Shown: positions 674 through 48,044, counted from the first letter of the stretch. The stretch: DNA of 53,156 bases from Microgenomates group bacterium Gr01-1014_7 (GCA_007376405.1 VMGD01000007.1:1-53156); one strand, 5' to 3'. A program made the numbers and translations. The notes: a model not told the origin generated them from the letters alone.

Positions 674-3600
674 TCACTCCGCTTTTTCCCTTGATGAAAC
701 CACTGTTGCTGCTGCCACTTTTTCTCCCGGCCGCACTCTCATTAAAATTACTCCTTGAGTTTGTCGCTGCAAAGTCGGAACCTGTTTTAGATCCATCTTT
801 ATTAATTGTCCTTTGGTGGAGGTTAAAACCAAGGTATCCATGCTTTTATTTATGGCTTGCGCCGTCACAATGAGTCCTGTTTTTTGGGTAATCTGCGCAG
901 CCTTTACTCCCTGCCCCCCTCTTCCCTGCTTTTTCCAGGCAGAAAATTTGGTTTTTTTACCCAGACCGTTTTCCATAATTAAAAGTAACTCATCTTCATT
1001 GCTTTCTACAAGATTTAAAGAAACCACCGTATCATCACCAGCAAGCCTTATGCCCCGTACACCGGATGTATCCCTGTGAGTTGGTTTAACTTGAGTTTCC
1101 ATAAATCTAATTGATTTACCGCTCCTTGAAACTATGATTAAATCATCTTTACCGGAAGTTGAGGCTACCCAACCCAGTTCATCCGAACTATCAAGTTTTA
1201 TAGCCACTAAACCGTTTTTGCGGATATTGGCGTATTCTTCAATGGCGGTTTTTTTAACAGTGCCTTTTTTGGTGCACATAAAGAAAAACTTTGCTGCTTC
1301 TTCTTTTTGTCGGGTGGTCAAAACTGCCGTAATCTTTTCTCCCTGTTCAATATTAATTAAATTAACAACAGCCTGACCTTTGGCTGCCCGTTGTGTCTCC
1401 GGAATTTCCCAGACTTTAATTTGAAAAACCCGGCCTTTGTCTGTAAAAAACAAAATATTATCATGTGTTTGGGTATAGAAAATATGAGAAACAGCATCTG
1501 TTTCTTTGGTGGAAATACCCATTACCCCTTTTCCGCCCCGATGCTGAGTCCGGAAAGACATCGGAGCTTGTCTTTTGATGTATCCTCCTGCGGTGATGGT
1601 AACAATTGTAGTTTCGTTTGCAACCAAATCCTCCTCATTAAATTCGCCTATCTTTTGTTTATAAACTCTTGTCCTTCTGTCATCTCCATATTTTTCTTTG
1701 ATTTTCAAAAGCTCGTCTTTAATAACTTTTAAGATTTTTTCCGGATGGGCCAGTAGATCCTCAAGATAGGCAATTGTTTCACGGACCATTTTAAGTTCAT
1801 CCTCAATTTTTTGACGCTCCAGGGCTGCCAGTCTTCGTAGTTGCATGTCTAAAATGGCCACCGCCTGAATCTCTGTTAATTTAAACTTGGCCATCAAATT
1901 CTGCTTTGCAGAATCTGCATCTTTACTCTTTTTGATTGTTTCAATAACAGCGTCAATATTATCAACGGCAATTTTCAAACCCTCCAAAATATGTTCCCGG
2001 GCTCGTGTCTCGCGCAATTCAAATTCGGAGCGTTTCCTGACAACTACCTGCCGGTGATAGATAAATTCCTCAAGAATGCGTTTTAAAGTGAGGAGATGAG
2101 GAACTCCGTCTGAAAGGGCTACCAGATTAACATTAAAAACCGACTGCATTGCAGTATATTTATAAAGGTTATTCAAGATTGATTGAGGTTTGCCGTCTCT
2201 TTTTAGATCAAACACAATCCGCACCATCTGTTTTCTGTCCGATTCATCGCGCAAATCCGCAATTCCTTCCAGTTTTTTGTCTTTAACCAGCTCGGCAATT
2301 CTGGCAATCAAGGTCGCCTTATTAACCTGGTAAGGAAGTTCCGAAACAATAATTTGCATTTTTCCAGCTGCTGTCTCTTCAATTTCCGCTTTGGCTCTCA
2401 TGACAATTCTTCCCTTGCCTGTAGCATAAGCTGCCAGGATTTCGGTTTGATCATAAATGGAAGCGCCGGTGGGAAAATCAGGGCCTTTTATATGTTTTAT
2501 TAGGTCTTCAACAGTAGCGGTGGGATGTTCTATCATAGCAATAAGCGCATCACAAACCTCTCCAAGATTATGAGGCGGAATCTGGGTAGCCATGCCAACT
2601 GCAATACCGGATGCGCCGTTTAATAGCAGGTTGGGTATGACTGAAGGAAGCAGTACCGGCTCTTGTACAGTACCGGAATAATTATCTATAAAATCAACGG
2701 TTTCTTTATTAATATCCCTAAGCAGTTCATCGGCAATAGCGGAAAGCCTGGCTTCGGTGTTATGGTTTATGAAGCCATTTGCTACGAACGAATGACATTT
2801 ACTATCAACTCTAATAGAATAGACAGTTTCTATACCTCCATCTTCAATATTAATAATGGGATCGAAAATATAATTATTGTCAATTAATTTTTCAAATAAT
2901 TTTTGAATTTCTATTTTAAGTGTTGGAATAATAGTTGGTAGTATTTGGGAATAATTTTGAGTCAAGTTAGAATAACGATCAAAATTATGCTTGAGAGCAA
3001 ATTCACGCTTTGCATACGCAATATTTGTATCTACCTGATTAAGAACATATTCTCTCAAAAATGGTACATAATCCAAAAGAGAAGAATCTTTATTTAAGAA
3101 ACATAAAACTTTTTCAAGCTTAGCATTCTTGTATTTAGATAAAAAACCGATTTCCTGTTGAAATAGTTTATAATTTTTTAGCCCTCTGATATATAGTTTA
3201 TGAATAGTTTTATATTTATCAAAACGTTTTGTAGAGGTAATACCAAATCTTAAGAAAAGTATTTGCAATTGATGAATCAGCGTTTCACTTTTTGAGCAAG
3301 CTGATAATTCCACCATTTTTTTACTACTACTGATACTGCCATCACCCTCAAAATAGGCAGATAAAAAGGCTGATACAATAGCTTTAGGAGATTTGAATAT
3401 AGTATGGGGTATGATTCTTCCCGGAGATTTTAATGGTGTTAAACCTAAATTCCGTAAAAATTCAATTATATAATGAGAATGTATTTCCAGTCTTTGATAT
3501 GGTTTTTTCCCATAAGATGATGGTTTGCGTAAAAATCTATGAAGACGACAATCTGGAAAAACTGCTTTCCATGATTTGATAAATTGTTCAATCCAAGCTT

Positions 3601-40691: not shown

Positions 40692-40728
40692 AATTTCTAA
40701 TTACTAATTTCTAATTGACCTAACTAAA
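40692..40728 (+). repeat. Tandem 7/9-mer array (TTTCTAA TTACTAA TTTCTAA TTGACCTAA) downstream of the four-helix-bundle gene
   Basis: Read directly; inverted counterpart at 41104-41137. Confidence 0.75.
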
Positions 40729-40737
40729 AAATACTTT

Positions 40738-41100
40738 CTATTTTACTTTCCTATAAATGGAATTAAAAATCAAGTTTAATTCTTTAGCTTCTGTCCATAA
40801 AGTTCTAGCTTCTTCGGTCATGCTGGGAACAGCAATTGCCATCATTCTTAGAAAATGTTTTGCTTCACGGGCTTCTTTCTTACAGATACCAATTTTGTGT
40901 TTAAAGTCGAGTTTACTCTCAGCGTCATCGGCCTCAGAGTAGTTTGCTCCCACACTAGTACCACACTTGACTAGTTGATTAATCAGAGGATGTGTTAGTG
41001 GACCTATGGGAATTTTCTGACAAAACTTGATAATTGCTTCCCCAAATTTTGCAGTCCTTTCTTCAAGATCAAATTTTTTGGTACTTGTATCATTAGACAT
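40738..41100 (-). CDS. Four helix bundle protein (TIGR02436 / 23S-IVS-protein family)
   Basis: DLEERT..F, QLVKCGTSVGANYSEA..AESKLDFKHKIGICKKEARE, EAKELNLIF. Confidence 0.9.
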   Translation of the reverse strand: MSNDTSTKKFDLEERTAKFGEAIIKFCQKIPIGPLTHPLINQLVKCGTSVGANYSEADDAESKLDFKHKIGICKKEAREAKHFLRMMAIAVPSMTEEARTLWTEAKELNLIFNSIYRKVK

Positions 41101-41103
41101 TAT

Positions 41104-41137
41104 TTAGAAATTAGGTTAATTAGGTTAATTAGGTTAA
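41104..41137 (-). repeat. Tandem array (TTAACCTAA)x3 plus TTTCTAA upstream of the four-helix-bundle gene, containing the tyrS stop
   Basis: The + strand reads ttagaaa ttaggttaa ttaggttaa ttaggttaa. Confidence 0.8.
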
Positions 41138-42232
41138 TTTTGTTAACTTCTCTATTTCCTCCAAAGCCTTCCTTCTTTTTGGATCTTCAAAATAACGGCG
41201 TGCTGGTTCTAGTTTTTTAATTAACCATTCTGCCACAGCAGTTTTTAAATCCATGGGGTGCAATTTTTTGCTGGCATAATCTTTTTGCAATTCATTGAAT
41301 GAATTGTAAGTTACATTTCCCCCATGTTCCGGTTTTCTGGAAACTTGTAAAGTTCCGTTCTCTTCATAAAATACTAGATTTTTTGTCCAATCCAAAATTG
41401 GATTAAATGCTATTTCTCCTTCCGGGCAAAAAGCATTATTAACTTTTCTTTTGATTTCATCAGGATAATCATGAATAAAAACAGCAGAATCCGGTTTGGA
41501 TTTGCTCATTTTGGCTGCCTCAATATCTAAAACTTTTTTACCACTCTCATCTGTTGTGAAAACCGGTTGAAGTAATCCCAGGAGTAGATGATGATGAATA
41601 GCCACCGGTTTTCGCTCACCCAAATCCTGCGCAGATTCTCTTGCAACAACATGGACATTTCTCTGGTCAGTTCCGGCGTGGGCTATATTTGCCCCCAATG
41701 CAAAAATGTCGGCAGACTGCATAGCCGGATAAATAAGCATGGCAGTATCGGAGATTTCCGACTCTTTCCGCCCCATTATCGTTGTGGATCTGATCATCCT
41801 TGCTAAAGTTGTTGCTTTGGCAACTCTAACAACGTTAGCCCAATAGTCATTGCCCAGTTTTTCATAAAGGTCGCTGCCCAATACGAAATTAATCTTGTCC
41901 GGGTTCGCACCGGCACATAATGCTGCCGCTTTAAGAGCTTTTTCAAAGTATTCTCTTGCCAGCCTTTTTGCTGTTTCCAGCGTCCCATCGAGTTTTTTAT
42001 TAAGCCAGGTATGCCAGTCAGCAAGGAGAATTTGGATTTCAACTCCTGCGTCTTGTAGATCCTTAATTTTCTGCATGGTATAAACCCAGCCCATGTGACC
42101 TTTTCCTGAAATTTCAAAGCCAATGTAGTGGCGGAGTGGAATTCCTGAGTTGATCAAACTCTTTAACTCTTCCTCCGTTAAAACCTCTTCCAGATTTCTG
42201 GTAATTAAATTAAACTTTTCCTCATTTGTCAT
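41129..42232 (-). CDS. tyrS: Tyrosine--tRNA ligase, archaeal/eukaryotic type
   Basis: YIGFEISGKGHMG, LADWH, IYPAMQSADIF, GTDQR, KMSKS, AFCPEG, LHPMDLK; no bacterial S4-like tail. Confidence 0.92.
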   Translation of the reverse strand: MTNEEKFNLITRNLEEVLTEEELKSLINSGIPLRHYIGFEISGKGHMGWVYTMQKIKDLQDAGVEIQILLADWHTWLNKKLDGTLETAKRLAREYFEKALKAAALCAGANPDKINFVLGSDLYEKLGNDYWANVVRVAKATTLARMIRSTTIMGRKESEISDTAMLIYPAMQSADIFALGANIAHAGTDQRNVHVVARESAQDLGERKPVAIHHHLLLGLLQPVFTTDESGKKVLDIEAAKMSKSKPDSAVFIHDYPDEIKRKVNNAFCPEGEIAFNPILDWTKNLVFYEENGTLQVSRKPEHGGNVTYNSFNELQKDYASKKLHPMDLKTAVAEWLIKKLEPARRYFEDPKRRKALEEIEKLTKLT

Positions 42233-42268
42233 AGTTCGATTATATATTATCGTGCTAAAATAACCAAT

Positions 42269-44089
42269 ATGTTTAAGTTTTTAAATGAGAAAAAAATGGA
42301 GAGGGTTAAGACTACCATTGTGACTTCATGGAGGTTGCTGGGTCTGCTTTGGAGTATTGATAAGTGGTTGCTTTTGGGGAATATGGCGGCGGTTTCCGTG
42401 CCGGCGGTTGTTCCTCTTTTGATTGGTTATATTTTTAAACTACTTATTGATCAGGTGGTATTAATTACTTCTGGAAAGCCCGCGGATAATCATTTGATAA
42501 TTCTGATAGTGGTTGCAGGATTTAGTACTTATGTTTTGCAAAGTTTGGCATTCTCCGCCCAGGACTACCTTGTCAGGTTAATCTATACAAAAGTTCCTGT
42601 TTCCTTATATAACATGATTTTACTGAAGGTTTCCAGTCTGGATATGGCTTATTTTGAAGATAGTGAATTTAAATCCACTCTGGAAAAGGCCAGGGATTCA
42701 TATACCTTCAGACCTTTAAATATGATGGATAATTTGCTTTTTACTTTTCAGGGGTTAATACAAATGATTGCGTCTTTGGCAGTTTTGGCATCCCTTAATT
42801 TGTTTTTAATTTTGCTGGTGATTTTGGTGGCTGTGCCGGAATTTCTAAACCGGGCCAGGCAATCCCAGCTTGCCTGGGGTATTTGGGATGCTAATTCCCC
42901 TTTCAGGAAAAAATTCTGGTATGTATCTTGGCTACTTCAAGAAAGAGATGCCATTAAAGAAATGAAGCTTTTTGCTCTTCCGCACCATTTTTTAGCAGAG
43001 CTTAAAGGTTTGCATGAGAAGTTTTATCAGGATAATAAAAAACTGGCTACCAAATATTTCGGCATTAATACTTTGTTTAATTTACTTGAAGGCTTTGCTT
43101 TTATTGGCATCCTTATATACATAATTTTTGAAACTATTGCCAAAAGATTAACTATTGGAGATATTAGCTACTATACTTCAGCAGCCACTAATTTCCAGAA
43201 TGCCATTGGTGGACTCTTTAGAAATGTGGTTAAACTTTTTGAGGGAAGCCTTTATATTGGTTCTATTTTTGAGGTTTTGGATGCCCAGCCTAAAATCAAG
43301 CAGATTGCAAATCCGGTCCGGTTAAATCTTAAGGGTCCACCGTTTATTGGATTTAAAAATGTTACCTTTTCATATCCGGGTACAAAGATTAAAGTACTGA
43401 AAAATTTTGATCTGACAATCAAACCGGGAGAAAAGATAGCGCTGGTTGGAGAAAACGGGTCAGGTAAAACTACCATCATTAAGCTTTTATGCAGGTTTTA
43501 TGATGTTTTGGAGGGAGAGATTTTAATTAACGGAAAAAATATTAAGGATTTAGATTTGAATGAGTGGTACAAAGCAGTCGGAGTTTTATTTCAGGATTTT
43601 GTTAAGTATGAATATAGCGCCAAGCAGAATATATTTTTCGGAAAGGTTTATGAAAAGATGAGCTTAGGAAAGATTATTGAGGCGGCAATATCTTCTGGTG
43701 CAGACCCAATGATTAGAAAATTGGAAAAAGGGTATGAACAAATGCTGGGCAGGACTTTTGAGGGTGGAGTGGAGCTTTCGGTCGGTCAGTGGCAGAAACT
43801 GGCCTTAGCCAGAGGGTTTTTTAGAAATGCCCCTATCTTGATTTTAGATGAGCCAACCGCCGCAATTGATGCTAAAGCCGAGGCGGAAATTTTTAATCGG
43901 GTTGAAAGGTTATCTAAGGATAAAACCGTAATTATTATTTCTCATCGATTTTCCACAGTCAGGAATGCGGACAAAATTTACGTGATTGAAAAGGGAAAAA
44001 TTATAGAATCGGGTTCTCATGAGCAGTTGATAGATTTAAACGGCCAATATGCCACACTTTTTAAACTTCAAGCCAAAGGCTACCGGTAA
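42269..44089 (+). CDS. ABC exporter, fused permease and ATP-binding domains
   Basis: N-terminal TM domain, GENGSGKTT, LSVGQWQK, ILDEPT, ISHRFST. Confidence 0.93.
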   Translation: MFKFLNEKKMERVKTTIVTSWRLLGLLWSIDKWLLLGNMAAVSVPAVVPLLIGYIFKLLIDQVVLITSGKPADNHLIILIVVAGFSTYVLQSLAFSAQDYLVRLIYTKVPVSLYNMILLKVSSLDMAYFEDSEFKSTLEKARDSYTFRPLNMMDNLLFTFQGLIQMIASLAVLASLNLFLILLVILVAVPEFLNRARQSQLAWGIWDANSPFRKKFWYVSWLLQERDAIKEMKLFALPHHFLAELKGLHEKFYQDNKKLATKYFGINTLFNLLEGFAFIGILIYIIFETIAKRLTIGDISYYTSAATNFQNAIGGLFRNVVKLFEGSLYIGSIFEVLDAQPKIKQIANPVRLNLKGPPFIGFKNVTFSYPGTKIKVLKNFDLTIKPGEKIALVGENGSGKTTIIKLLCRFYDVLEGEILINGKNIKDLDLNEWYKAVGVLFQDFVKYEYSAKQNIFFGKVYEKMSLGKIIEAAISSGADPMIRKLEKGYEQMLGRTFEGGVELSVGQWQKLALARGFFRNAPILILDEPTAAIDAKAEAEIFNRVERLSKDKTVIIISHRFSTVRNADKIYVIEKGKIIESGSHEQLIDLNGQYATLFKLQAKGYR

Positions 44090-44163
44090 ATTTCAAATTT
44101 TAGCTTCTGTTTGTGGTAATATATCAAGCTGGATGGCTAATATTACAAAATTAACACAGGCTT
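44057..44163 (+). repeat. Diverged direct repeat, copy 1 (ABC 3' end, promoter and first 10 codons of the 45506 gene)
   Basis: Aligns with 45431-45536; carries a dead-end MANITKLTQAS* start at 44133. Confidence 0.9.
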
Positions 44164-44347
44164 CCTGAAGATTTTTTATTATCCGCATGGTGGCAAGGCC
44201 GGTTCCCAGATGCACTTTCCCGGAAATCTCAAAGCCAATATAATGCTTTAAAGGAGTTCCTGATTCAATCAGCTGTTTTAGTTCTTGTTCAGTTAAAACT
44301 TCCTCCAAATTCCTGGTAATTAAATTAAATTTATCATCGCTGGTCAT
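44159..44347 (-). pseudogene. tyrS: tyrS 5' fragment (63 codons), diverged allele
   Basis: MTSDDKFNLITRNLEEVLTE...YIGFEISGKVHLGT...NLQEA matches the N-terminus of the intact tyrS, then homology stops. Confidence 0.9.
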
Positions 44348-44354
44348 GGATTGA

Positions 44355-44726
44355 TTATACAATATTGTCCTTTGCAAAGGACAGGAATTTTCGGAGTAAA
44401 TTCTCTAAGGAATCGGATTTGCTAATTTGAAAAGAAGGAGAATTGACATTCTCGTATTGCTTAGAATGAAAATGTAAAGGAAATGTAGAAACTTTAGACC
44501 ATTTTTTATCCGGGGTATTATCCAAACGGTAAATTAAATTATCAATATGATTTCTCTCCCAATGAATGGAGAAGCGAAGTTTTGAAACTGTTGTCGTGTA
44601 GAAAAAGTCAATAAAGCTTTTATCCGTAAGGTAAATACGTAGTTTATGTCCTAAATCTTGTGTTGATAAGACTATACCCGAAAATTCAACTTCGGCAATT
44701 CTAGCAAATCTTGTAAATTTTGCCAT
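44355..44726 (-). CDS. DUF6516/TumE-like putative toxin
   Basis: YRLDNTP...STFPLHFH motif in a 123-aa ORF overlapping a small upstream partner. Confidence 0.6.
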   Translation of the reverse strand: MAKFTRFARIAEVEFSGIVLSTQDLGHKLRIYLTDKSFIDFFYTTTVSKLRFSIHWERNHIDNLIYRLDNTPDKKWSKVSTFPLHFHSKQYENVNSPSFQISKSDSLENLLRKFLSFAKDNIV

Positions 44727-44974
44727 AGGTTGGCCTTTTTAAGTTTTAATTTGCGAAGTTCCTTTTCTATTTTTGTTTTCTCGGATAGCAAGTGATCAAA
44801 CAGGAAAAAATCCTCCCCCACAGTTTCCTCGGATAATTTTCCTTTATAAAGTAATTTATCCAGGTCATCAGTGGTTTTGACTCCATACCTTGACGTAAGG
44901 CGGAATAGTTCGGCTTCAATAAGACGATGTTTTTCAATTAAGATAATAGCTTTAGCTTTGTTTTGTTCACTCAT
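44672..44974 (-). CDS. Putative antitoxin partner (TumA-like)
   Basis: 100-aa helical ORF (L...RYGVKT...KGKL.E) upstream of and overlapping the putative toxin. Confidence 0.5.
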   Translation of the reverse strand: MSEQNKAKAIILIEKHRLIEAELFRLTSRYGVKTTDDLDKLLYKGKLSEETVGEDFFLFDHLLSEKTKIEKELRKLKLKKANLWQNLQDLLELPKLNFRV

Positions 44975-45010
44975 ATGAAAAGATTATAACATATTATGAT
45001 AGATAGCATT

Positions 45011-45036
45011 GTGCTAAGATTACCAATATATTTAAG
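45011..45036 (+). repeat. Remnant copy of the ABC exporter promoter and start (42252-42277)
   Basis: gtgctaagattaccaatatatttaag vs gtgctaaaataaccaatatgtttaag, 23/26 identical; ATG reads ATA. Confidence 0.75.
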
Positions 45037-45132
45037 CGGAGTCCCTGAATCAATCAGCTGTTTTAATTCTACCTCTGTTAAAACCTCCTCCAAATTTCGC
45101 TTTATTAAATTAAACTTTTCTTCATTGGTCAT
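45031..45132 (-). pseudogene. tyrS: Second tyrS 5' fragment (34 codons)
   Basis: Hand translation MTNEEKFNLIKRNLEEVLTEVELKQLIDSGTPLK; not in the ORF track. Confidence 0.9.
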
Positions 45133-45386
45133 TTATTTTTTTGGCTTTCTTCCCAAATGATAGCTCTTCTTCTATCAGCATCAGATATTTGAGGAAACGT
45201 GAGGCCAGATTTTCCAGCTCTAGCTTCTCTAATGAATGGATTATCAGTGCTAAAGCTGGGAATAGATCTCGTGTTATCGCCTGAAGCATATTGAAGATCA
45301 CGAAGCCAACCAGAACAAGCTTCTGAACCAAATGCTACAGCCAAGCTTACTGCTAAACATAAACCTAATTCAAATCTTCTATCCAT
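45129..45386 (-). CDS. Small hypothetical protein with N-terminal hydrophobic segment (85 aa)
   Basis: TAGAAT 6 nt before the ATG; stop overlaps the tyrS-fragment ATG (ATGA). Confidence 0.6.
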   Translation of the reverse strand: MDRRFELGLCLAVSLAVAFGSEACSGWLRDLQYASGDNTRSIPSFSTDNPFIREARAGKSGLTFPQISDADRRRAIIWEESQKNK

Positions 45387-45430
45387 GAACTGATTCTATA
45401 TTAATTAGTAAAATTTGACAATACACCCTC

Positions 45431-45536
45431 CTTTTTAAACTTCAGGCTAAAGGTTACCGGTAAATTTCAATTTTGAGCCTTTATTTGTGGTAATATAGGG
45501 CTCAAATGGCTAATATTACAAAATTAACGCAGGCTT
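45431..45536 (+). repeat. Diverged direct repeat, copy 2 (orphan ABC 3' end LFKLQAKGYR*, promoter and start of the 45506 gene)
   Basis: Aligns with 44057-44163. Confidence 0.9.
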
Positions 45537-47074
45537 TGGTGGCAGGATACGATAAGGTCTACTCTACTTCCGATGATAAAACAATCTCGGTCAATCCTTT
45601 AGTGGCAGAGCTTGCTAGCTGGTATGAAAAGTTTCGCACAGCCATGGATTACCGGGCTGATGAGGTGTTACTCCGTTCTGCAATAGAGCGGATTTTAAAG
45701 AGAAGATTGCTTTTAAGCAGCAGTGGTGAAGTCATTGCCGCCCCTTTAATTAGAGAACTTGTCTGGGCCCGCTATTTTCCGGATTCCTCAGTTCCCGAAT
45801 CAAAAGTTGTCAGGGTGGCTCAAACTATTGATCTTTTTTTGCTGCTGGAGAAAAAAATTAATCAAAAGCACAGGATAAATACCGGTTTGGTAAATGAATG
45901 GATCATAGATCTTTTATCCTCTGAAATTGAAGATATTTTAAAACCTGGCAATGAAGCGGATTTGATGTCCAATTTTATCTATCAGCTTTTCAGAGGTAAA
46001 GTTACAATCAGTGATGATTCGGAAGAAACCAGGGATATACAGGTTTACATTGCCGTAAGAAGAGCTTATGCCAATGATGATCTGGCCCTCTTACGCTATC
46101 GCCTTTTTAAACAATATTTTGGTAAACTAACTGTTCATAATTTGGAAAAAGTATCGGAAGATTTTGCCGGGGCAAAAAGAAAACTGGAAGAACAGCTCAA
46201 GTTTCCGGCCAGAGATAAAATTTATACTTACATAAAAAATCAGACCATCCCCTTTTCAATTTTGGATGATGTTTTCAGAAAACATCAGGGGAATGTTTCA
46301 ATCTTAGTAGGCGATGAGGATCAGCTTAATCTGGAAATCTTAAATGCCTGCGCGAGCAGATATAAAACTATCAGAGCCAAGGTTAACAGAGCAATTGTAA
46401 GAAGCGTTATTTTTATATTTTTTACCAAAGCGGCCTTTGCGCTATTTATAGAAGGGACTTTTGAAAGATTAATTTATGGGCAGGTTATTATTTCTTCATT
46501 ACTGATTAATACTTTATCCCCGGTAATTTTAATGATAATAGTCGGGGTTTTAATTAAAACTCCGGGCAGGGATAATTCTTTCCGGATTCAAAAAAAGATT
46601 AATACTATTTTATTTGATGACCCTCCCATACTGGATAAGGATTTGATCCTCAGGCGCAGACCAAGCAAAATTGACCCCTTACTTTGGGGTATGTTTATGT
46701 TGCTTTGGCTGGCTACTTTTGCCCTTTCGTTTGGAGGAATTGTCTTTATTTTAAGCAAATTGCGGGTTAATCCTCTTTCCCAGGGAGTATTTATATTCTT
46801 TTTGGCAATAGTTTCTTTTGTGTCATACAGGATAAACAGGACAGCGCATATGTATATCTTAAAGGACCGCAGAGAGAATTTGGGTTCTTTGATTTTTGAC
46901 TTTTTCTTTATGCCTTTTATACAAGTGGGAAGAAAACTGACACAGGCAGTTTCTCAAATAAATATAGTGCTTTTTATATTTGATTTTATTATTGAAACCC
47001 CATTTAAAGGAATTGTGGCCTTTTTTGAACAGTGGCTATTATTCCTGCGGACCCAAAGAGAAAAACTGGATTGA
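45506..47074 (+). CDS. Hypothetical membrane protein (soluble N-domain plus about 4 TM helices)
   Basis: 522-aa ORF; YEKFRTAMDY...LLRSAIERIL.RRL N-terminus; hydrophobic C-half. Confidence 0.8.
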   Translation: MANITKLTQALVAGYDKVYSTSDDKTISVNPLVAELASWYEKFRTAMDYRADEVLLRSAIERILKRRLLLSSSGEVIAAPLIRELVWARYFPDSSVPESKVVRVAQTIDLFLLLEKKINQKHRINTGLVNEWIIDLLSSEIEDILKPGNEADLMSNFIYQLFRGKVTISDDSEETRDIQVYIAVRRAYANDDLALLRYRLFKQYFGKLTVHNLEKVSEDFAGAKRKLEEQLKFPARDKIYTYIKNQTIPFSILDDVFRKHQGNVSILVGDEDQLNLEILNACASRYKTIRAKVNRAIVRSVIFIFFTKAAFALFIEGTFERLIYGQVIISSLLINTLSPVILMIIVGVLIKTPGRDNSFRIQKKINTILFDDPPILDKDLILRRRPSKIDPLLWGMFMLLWLATFALSFGGIVFILSKLRVNPLSQGVFIFFLAIVSFVSYRINRTAHMYILKDRRENLGSLIFDFFFMPFIQVGRKLTQAVSQINIVLFIFDFIIETPFKGIVAFFEQWLLFLRTQREKLD

Positions 47075-47100
47075 CGCTTCGAAAGAATCTCCTGTACAAT
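47071..47100 (+). promoter_or_regulatory. Sigma70-like promoter of the atp operon (TTGACG-N18-TACAAT), probably leaderless
   Basis: Near-consensus -35 and -10; atpB ATG 7 nt after the -10. Confidence 0.6.
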
Positions 47101-47107
47101 ATAAGGG

Positions 47108-48044
<937 letters not shown>

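Follow-up and report, generated by a model that had tools for sequence, protein, structure and literature searches.

Stacked tyrS starts and cargo genes in a Microgenomates genome: a candidate natural footprint of integrase-free gene gain

When genomic islands accrete in tandem at tRNA genes or other gene ends, site-specific recombinases build arrays in which copies of the target end recur and the newest island stands beside the intact gene. An array of similar appearance lies on contig VMGD01000007.1 of Microgenomates group bacterium Gr01-1014_7 (GCA_007376405.1), between the tyrosine--tRNA ligase gene tyrS and a gene starting at 45506 that we call geneX. Like accreted islands, it is a row of cargo genes in which each unit has an end of the target gene, and the unit that appears newest lies next to the intact copy. 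Unlike them, it has no recombinase on its contig and no constant crossover site, and its repeats are long, diverged pieces of genes rather than short att repeats. The stretch analyzed, here called the window, is the entire contig of 53,156 bases; the genome, from an uncultured groundwater bacterium, is a metagenome bin of 1.09 Mb in 26 contigs, with 38.5% GC.

Among phenomena already described, insertion with long target duplication comes closest. In it, restriction-modification genes, a small selfish cargo lacking mobility genes, lie between direct repeats of >30 bp, often over the 3' end of a gene; the empty-site genome has one copy, and most cases are reported from naturally competent species (Furuta et al. 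2010, PMC2853133). The window is alike in that its repeats measure 37-212 nucleotides (nt), and in that tyrS and geneX lie directly adjacent, with one copy of each, in 61 of 80 relatives' loci. These 80 are distinct tyrS loci from family genomes and metagenome contigs, and adjacency means a gap of at most 150 nt. Long target duplications, however, are near-identical, occur within species and are read as duplicates of the target, whereas the copies in the window are 70-85% alike and bear the marks of separate evolution as live genes, which argues that one copy came in with the cargo. The window further differs in its site, the 5' end of a gene beside a divergent promoter, and in the stacking of its units.

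A mechanism that could produce such joints is homology-facilitated illegitimate recombination (HFIR), which has been outlined for Acinetobacter, S. pneumoniae and P. stutzeri as a RecA-dependent, integrase-free process with one homologous end and the other joined at 3-10 bases (PMC6382021). The joints of the window have 5 and 6-14 bases in common, and genes for uptake and recombination are present. HFIR is usually described with substitution or deletion as its outcome. While HFIR is known from laboratory selection, the window looks like a natural footprint, three events deep and between genera, in which the illegitimate joint falls just inside the anchor gene and the old start is kept as a stub, an additive result. 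An experimental route from DNA uptake to an additive duplicated structure has been described for merodiploids of S. pneumoniae, where transformation at an essential gene leaves survivors with intact and altered copies in tandem (Johnston et al. 2013, PMC3784515). As that source presents them, merodiploid duplications span 100-900 kb and involve repeats derived from insertion sequences and sister chromatids, whereas the units here measure 0.4-2.1 kb and would derive from foreign alleles. Our literature search found no paper linking illegitimate recombination with Patescibacteria, and the word "illegitimate" is absent from a recent paper on gene exchange among groundwater Patescibacteria.

We consider it rather probable that the divergent tyrS-geneX junction is a hot spot for recombination among these small-genome bacteria, a family resembling those of the candidate phyla radiation (CPR), and that DNA of related lineages was added there at least three times, without replacing what was present, by events anchored in homology and sealed at microhomology. 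That the array is an integrase-free stack of alternative alleles is supported by the evidence given below; HFIR during transformation, specifically, is a plausible path to it.

The array and its joints

The structure is a direct three-unit repetition, each unit comprising a tyrS start, a cargo and the start or end of the right-hand neighbor, and every piece keeps the resident orientation. The anchor gene is single-copy, no second tyrS being present anywhere in the genome. The features, from left to right, are as follows.

41129..42232, minus strand: intact tyrS (tyrS_1, or t1 where copies are compared), the anchor gene; Pfam tRNA-synt_1b, 1e-43; NCBIfam tyrosine--tRNA ligase, 2e-127
42233..42268, no strand: IG1, the 36-nt divergent intergenic region between the starts of tyrS and ABC
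42269..44089, plus strand: ABC (ATP-binding cassette) exporter, a fused permease-ATPase, MsbA-like by Pfam and NCBIfam; cargo of module 1
44090..44163, plus strand: IG2 (43 nt) and the first 10 geneX codons (X_1), ending at joint 1; 84% copy of 45431-45536, E 1e-25
44159..44164, no strand: joint 1, geneX codon 10 against tyrS codon 63; GGCTT (44159-44163) is common to both
44160..44371, minus strand: t2, a tyrS 5' stub of 62-63 codons (44347 down to 44160) with 24 nt upstream; 70% nucleotide identity to 42048-42256, E 4e-19
44355..44726, minus strand: predicted TumE-family toxin gene (PF20126); cargo of module 2
44672..44974, minus strand: 100-residue partner upstream of the toxin, presumed antitoxin, overlapping the toxin start; no family match
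45000..45036, plus strand: second IG1 and the first 3 ABC codons (start ATG changed to ATA); 81% over 37 nt to 42241-42277
45023..45036, no strand: joint 2, ABC codon 3 against tyrS codon 34-37; CCAATAT..TTTAAG fits both parents
45035..45132 (from 45023 if the ambiguous stretch is counted), minus strand: t3, a tyrS 5' stub of 33-34 codons (45132 down to 45035); 85% over 71 nt to tyrS_1, E 1e-13
45129..45386, minus strand: orf85, an 85-codon small protein with a hydrophobic N terminus; cargo of module 3; its stop overlaps the t3 start (ATGA)
about 45415-45419, no strand: joint 3, upstream region of orf85 against the last 14 ABC codons
45419..45463, plus strand: ABC 3' remnant, 14 codons and the stop; 4 of its 6 differing codons differ synonymously
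45464..45505, plus strand: second copy of IG2
45506..47074, plus strand: geneX, a 522-residue membrane protein without known family, upstream of the ATP synthase operon

Self-BLASTN against the whole genome recovered the four main copy pairs at E values of 4e-19 (t2 and tyrS_1), 1e-13 (t3 and tyrS_1), 5e-18 (t3 and t2, 79% over 114 nt) and 1e-25. The last of these is a 119-nt direct repeat, in which 44045-44163 (the ABC 3' end, IG2 and 10 geneX codons) recurs at 45419-45536 with 84% identity over 111 nt; the two copies of the 31-nt geneX start agree at 30 of 31 positions. For the short IG1 copy, a 26-mer with at most 3 mismatches was found twice in the window, and two or more matches occurred in 0 of 100 shuffles. 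By these measures the copies lie far above chance. All elements of the array listed in the initial annotation are present, with small corrections, one being that the ABC 3' remnant, given there as 10 codons, has 14 and a stop.

The same annotation had placed the two head-to-head joints on words common to both partners, GGCTT and CCAATAT..TTTAAG, and with the parents as we reconstruct them this holds. Because the tyrS sequence at joint 2 is similar to the ABC start, 6 to 14 nt there could belong to either, and the microhomology is either TTTAAG or up to 14 nt with one 3-nt gap; such lengths are estimates, the parental sequences being reconstructed from sister copies. The joints fall at different tyrS codons (63 and 34) and at three partner positions, namely, geneX codon 10, ABC codon 3 and the ABC 3' end. 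No core common to them was seen in their sequences by eye, with no motif search run.

Structures of this kind invite the suspicion that an assembler joined different strains' or species' versions of one locus, and the origin of the genome as a metagenome bin gives it some ground, as does a 23-nt identical run at the geneX start, which could misguide assembly with short k-mers. Against such an artefact, independent assembly of the run that probably represents the source sample gave a single unbranched contig of 6268 nt spanning 41110-47377 and identical to the window throughout. A second sample from this study yielded contigs covering 43820-44254 and 44998-45487, which span joints 1 and 2, also with 0 differences, although the left side at joint 2 extends only 39 nt; two further samples contain parts of the array. 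The junctions, which had been put forward for confirmation in sequencing data, are thus found in the contigs of two samples, and their identical form in the second argues that the array is not a co-assembly chimera. The 5-14 bases common at the joints are, moreover, insufficient for a k-mer join, and we regard an artefact as very improbable. This evidence consists of contigs rather than raw reads, with all runs from one study. None of the contigs in these four runs skips any module, which is no proof that single-cargo forms are absent.

The second module was initially described as a toxin-antitoxin pair. Its toxin half stands: the protein matches PF20126 (E 2e-12; 47.4 bits against a cut-off of 23.4) and scores 17.7 against the NCBIfam TumE equivalog, below the cut-off of 90, and it is predicted to be a TumE family member outside the characterized subgroup. 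TumE toxins are reported to inhibit translation (PMC10584680). The 100-residue partner, presumed to be the antitoxin, matches no Pfam or NCBIfam family. Homologs of the toxin with 59-67% identity occur in 7 other genomes, the partner lies directly upstream in 7 of 7 loci, and the two form a conserved two-gene unit there.

At the intact divergent promoter, consensus promoter-like hexamers for tyrS and ABC each extend into the first codons of the neighbor (42226-42275; pattern match only). A working copy of tyrS or ABC may therefore need its neighbor's first codons, a dependence that could explain why the stubs include them. Further promoter-like sites, candidates for driving the TumE pair and orf85, lie at 45053-45025 and 45421-45393.

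Origin of the copies

Differences among the tyrS copies are mainly synonymous. The proportions of synonymous (pS) and nonsynonymous (pN) sites that differ are 0.81 and 0.16 for t1-t2 (61 codons), 0.79 and 0.09 for t1-t3 (33 codons), and 0.61 and 0.11 for t2-t3 (33 codons), giving pN/pS ratios of 0.12-0.20 with pS saturated. Third codon positions hold 61-67% of the differences (23/35, 14/23 and 14/21, respectively), which cover all base types, and the reading frames of t2 and t3 contain no stops and no frameshifts. A stub decaying in place would gain replacement changes as fast as silent ones, so these copies diverged as working genes in separate lineages and lost their remainder only recently.

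The same numbers weigh on an alternative in which the locus was duplicated in tandem where it stands and the copies then diverged, gaining insertions and deletions. Duplication would account for the resident orientation of every segment, yet neutral drift predicts ratios of nonsynonymous to synonymous change (dN/dS) near 0.5 or more between a stub and a live gene, far from those observed with saturated pS and intact frames. In addition, t2 has 84% nucleotide identity to the tyrS of two genomes of other genera (G069 and G088) and 70% to its own tyrS_1. The low pN/pS and this closeness to other genera refute in-place duplication, barring strong selection on the stubs, and we give it scarcely any credence.

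Phylogenies of the two flanking genes disagree. In a tyrS tree of 39 loci, tyrS_1 groups with L093, L092, L101, L102 and L094 at 99% support, whereas in the geneX tree of the same size this genome's geneX is sister to L077 and L029, and an approximately unbiased test rejects the geneX grouping for tyrS (p 6e-5). The downstream ATP synthase genes side with geneX, being mostly closest to L076, L074 and L107. The stub t2, at 62 residues, has no supported position in the tyrS tree; its motif after GFEISGK matches the L077 type, which suggests that t2 represents the native lineage and tyrS_1 the incomer, a view held loosely because it depends on about 20 residues. Base composition gives no foreign signal, with module GC at 32-40% against 40% for the window; foreign origin is indicated instead by the pN/pS ratios, the closeness of t2 to other genera and the conflict between trees. 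Together with the single-cargo relatives described below, the discordant trees and the purifying-selection divergence of the stubs bear out the initial proposal that alternative versions of one locus were brought together here.

The family's tyrS genes (loci L028-L143) split into two deep clades, each with 100% support, and this split does not follow the geneX tree; L033 and L080, for example, are sisters by geneX and yet have tyrS from different clades. This conflict indicates that tyrS alleles have been exchanged repeatedly at a fixed locus.

Where geneX does not directly follow tyrS, the arrangement varies among the 80 loci: 8 have an insert of 161-2463 nt between the two genes, 7 have ABC beside tyrS, 3 have atpB there and 1 has no recognized neighbor. 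Single-cargo forms exist for two of the three modules. The order tyrS, ABC, geneX occurs in G018 and L092, and L140 has ABC followed by geneX, with a geneX start 91% identical; the ABC protein of the window is 90% identical to that of L140, 83% to that of G018 and 54% to that of L092. In L098, a homolog of orf85 (46% identical, E 3e-26) lies between tyrS and geneX, its stop abutting the tyrS start as in the window. Such homologs are rare, occurring in 0 of 95 other family genomes, and the recurrence at the same position is therefore telling. Just upstream of the ABC promoter, L140 has a RelB antitoxin gene and a 90-residue partner, a different pair in a position equivalent to that of the TumE pair. 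The expectation that relatives would carry single units matching each module is thus borne out for ABC and orf85 (G018, L092 and L098) and not for TumE, for which none was found. The full array, whose presence in relatives had been named as a counterindication, occurs in 0 of 67 relatives' loci.

Two observations concern geneX itself. The protein has a hydrophobic C-terminal half and belongs to no Pfam or NCBIfam family, and in 26 of the 41 relatives searched, a count that includes this genome, its gene immediately precedes the ATP synthase operon. At L122:1819-3383, geneX matches as two pieces (1819-2877 and 2874-3383) with an overlap at residue 353, which may reflect a frameshift or an error of sequencing.

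Formation of the array and comparable scars

If additive recombination built the array, each incoming piece would have brought its own working tyrS 5' end, a promoter region and a cargo, and would have paired with the resident chromosome by homology on the tyrS side. A few common bases would have sealed its far end, within ABC for the oldest event and within the 5' region of the resident tyrS for the others. Since each event would supply a new working tyrS start and leave the old one as a stub, the newest allele would stand next to intact tyrS and the older ones would be pushed outward, each headed by a truncated tyrS. The oldest step would have started from an ancestor with tyrS, ABC and geneX in a row, in which an orf85 allele replaced most of ABC (joint 3). 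In the second, tyrS with the TumE pair and an ABC-type promoter region would have been added and sealed in resident tyrS codon 34 (joint 2), and in the newest, tyrS_1 with ABC and a geneX start would have been added and sealed at codon 63 (joint 1). An additive outcome may have been favored because tyrS is essential and a toxin-antitoxin pair penalizes its own loss; recombinants that kept the old unit may have survived where clean replacement did not.

The order of these events, uptake by natural transformation, dependence on RecA and an HFIR-type path are inferences. The genome encodes ComEC, DprA and RecA, with PilB, PilT and PilC in the window, and competence has been reported for cultivated Saccharibacteria (PMC10633639).

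Several observations weigh against this reconstruction. The homologous junction it supposes is not visible. The similarity profile of the tyrS_1 3' portion agrees with that of its own 5' end (Spearman 0.39) no better than with that of t2 (0.40), where calibration on portions of the same gene gave a median of 0.44. A DNA search found a single-cargo version of the TumE module in 0 of 95 family genomes, bar two weak matches of 30-36 nt, and none of the 7 TumE homolog loci found elsewhere lies beside tyrS. An extra 5' stub of tyrS or geneX was found in 0 of 67 relatives' loci by a search whose positive control on the window found all, making the 5' array a single case so far. The collections searched contained no genome of the same genus and no donor or empty-site parent closer than about 80% nucleotide identity, which is why the parental sequences at the joints had to be reconstructed. 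Both samples that confirm joints belong to one study. Finally, tyrS 3'-end copies in four relatives start within about 10 nt of each other, which random illegitimate joints do not predict.

These 3' copies belong to a wider set of scars at the same locus. Copies of the last 54-62 nt of tyrS, all ending at the stop codon, lie beyond cargo in L073, L080, L115 and L118. For geneX, the final 26-70 nt recur past inserted cargo in L031, L079, L080 (two stacked), L132 and L134. The cargo at such 3' scars is often a toxin-antitoxin pair; examples are MntA/HepT and DUF6883/DUF4926 pairs, and there is also a DUF2283 protein next to a partner. Recurrence of the tyrS 3' start point hints at inherited homology arms or a preferred site. 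L073 and L118 have the same cargo behind very different tyrS alleles and, taken with the near-identical starts, this fits traveling gene stubs better than random joints. When the geneX 3' copies of L080 are compared with the close relative L088, the intact gene matches at 61/70 positions, copy 3 at 58/70 and copy 2 at 54/70. The stack itself (L080:9487-13104), which resembles that of the window but stands at a 3' end, runs from intact geneX through a cargo, a 63-nt geneX-end copy, MntA/HepT, a 70-nt copy and a further gene to the native atpB promoter region.

Traveling arms are what a Campbell-type route would predict. A fragment of a relative's locus, circularized at microhomology, or an excised circle of repeat and cargo, would enter the chromosome through a single homologous crossover, either in the tyrS 5' end or in the segment made up of the ABC 3' end, IG2 and the geneX start. 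What is duplicated would be the homology used for crossing over, and the stub, once formed, would serve as a portable homology arm with which the cassette could move on. The 119-nt repeat brackets modules 2 and 3 as such a product should, its 23-nt identical run is suited to crossover, and the near-same starts of the four tyrS 3' remnants and the cargo common to L073 and L118 fit arms that travel with cargo. Transformation, however, delivers single strands, and a double-stranded circle needs an extra step; repeats only 70-84% alike are ill suited to a single crossover by RecA; the history would still need three nested events, each with a different joint; and no circle or excision product was seen in the four runs. 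We think this route unlikely. A single crossover of a circularized fragment would yield the same product as HFIR, and so might unequal exchange driven by transformation.

A recurrent start point could also reflect a recombinase encoded elsewhere in the genome that targets the tyrS start and accretes small integrative elements in tandem. Stacked elements with gene-end copies are typical of site-specific accretion, and the genome does have candidates: tyrosine recombinase (PF00589) matches at four places, on contigs C13, C21 and C2 only, and seven large serine recombinase genes (PF00239; open frames of 502-616 residues) on C2, C15, C17, C18, C21, C25 and C26. The window, however, contains no tyrosine or serine recombinase, reverse transcriptase or transposase-like open reading frame, and those of the array encode the ABC transporter, TumE, its partner and orf85; the absence of integrase and transposase genes noted initially is upheld, with recombinases on other contigs only. 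The scattered tyrS codons and partner genes of the joints, with no core evident by eye, also speak against a site-specific enzyme, as do the repeated tyrS pieces, which are 100-212 nt long, unequal in length and whole diverged gene starts rather than att-sized. We regard accretion of this kind as improbable.

Elsewhere in the genome, six diversity-generating retroelements were found, on C5 (7914-9780, 35834-37762 and 61719-63698), C16 (38399-40404), C25 (7043-12058) and C26 (70015-71954). All six include a reverse transcriptase, most also an Avd-like four-helix protein, and in every one the 3' end of a target gene forms a repeat pair of 78-86% identity with a nearby template; in that of C25, one template is common to two target genes. 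The array was considered as a set of such template and variable repeats and rejected, as all six reverse transcriptases are on other contigs and the differences between copies are not adenine-specific.

These elements also account for most of the short gene-end copies returned by a genome-wide count of remnants, suggested initially as a check. Among 66 local repeat pairs within 15 kb, the pairs of 100-190 nt and 78-86% identity at gene 3' ends on C5 (three), C16, C25 and C26 are retroelement template/variable repeats rather than remnants, and other local pairs are tandem paralogs or internal repeats. Two clear remnants beside cargo remain outside the window. At C5:37785-38532, a Metallophos (SbcD-like) gene is followed by a DUF433/DUF5615 pair and a 63-nt copy of that gene's end at 90% identity, and at C3:18225-19182, a gene for a 231-residue PaaX_M/Cas2-like protein lies between penicillin-binding protein and Mur ligase genes with a 50-nt, 84% copy. 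Intergenic repeats surround cargo on C2, C12 and C23.

A different kind of variability borders the array. Just downstream of tyrS, a 23S-rRNA-IVS-protein gene (IVS, intervening sequence; 40738-41100) is bracketed by an AT-rich inverted sequence and a 9-nt tandem repeat (41109-41144). Many contigs of the runs have the same flanks as window positions 40692-41144 and skip 371-396 nt or differ there, and word depth is 266 at 40968-201 and 117 at 40500-733, compared with about 33 elsewhere. It looks as if the gene were an exchangeable cassette present in several copies.

Implications for small-genome bacteria

Taking up DNA is regarded as a main way in which these bacteria innovate, but descriptions of the scars it leaves in genomes are scarce. 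On the reading we favor, the window would be a footprint left in nature by several integrase-free events of gene gain between genera of uncultivated bacteria, at a fixed locus where an aminoacyl-tRNA synthetase gene is repeatedly exchanged. Because the array would keep both the order of events and the displaced alleles, it offers a testable model in which essential anchors and addiction modules bias recombination toward accretion. In practical terms, stubs of this kind can be mistaken for pseudogenes, att sites or repeats of diversity-generating retroelements.

A broader proposal can be put forward tentatively, as possible but doubtful. CPR bacteria with small genomes may build integrase-free, chronologically ordered arrays of gene ends and cargo at conserved genes, through recombination, driven by transformation, with DNA from other genera. 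Outcomes would be forced to be additive rather than substitutive by an anchor that is essential and by addictive cargo, for instance toxin-antitoxin pairs, and the stubs would act as portable homology arms. If this is true, each cassette would be transferable to any relative that has the anchor gene, and such arrays would represent a general, recombinase-independent route of gene mobility.

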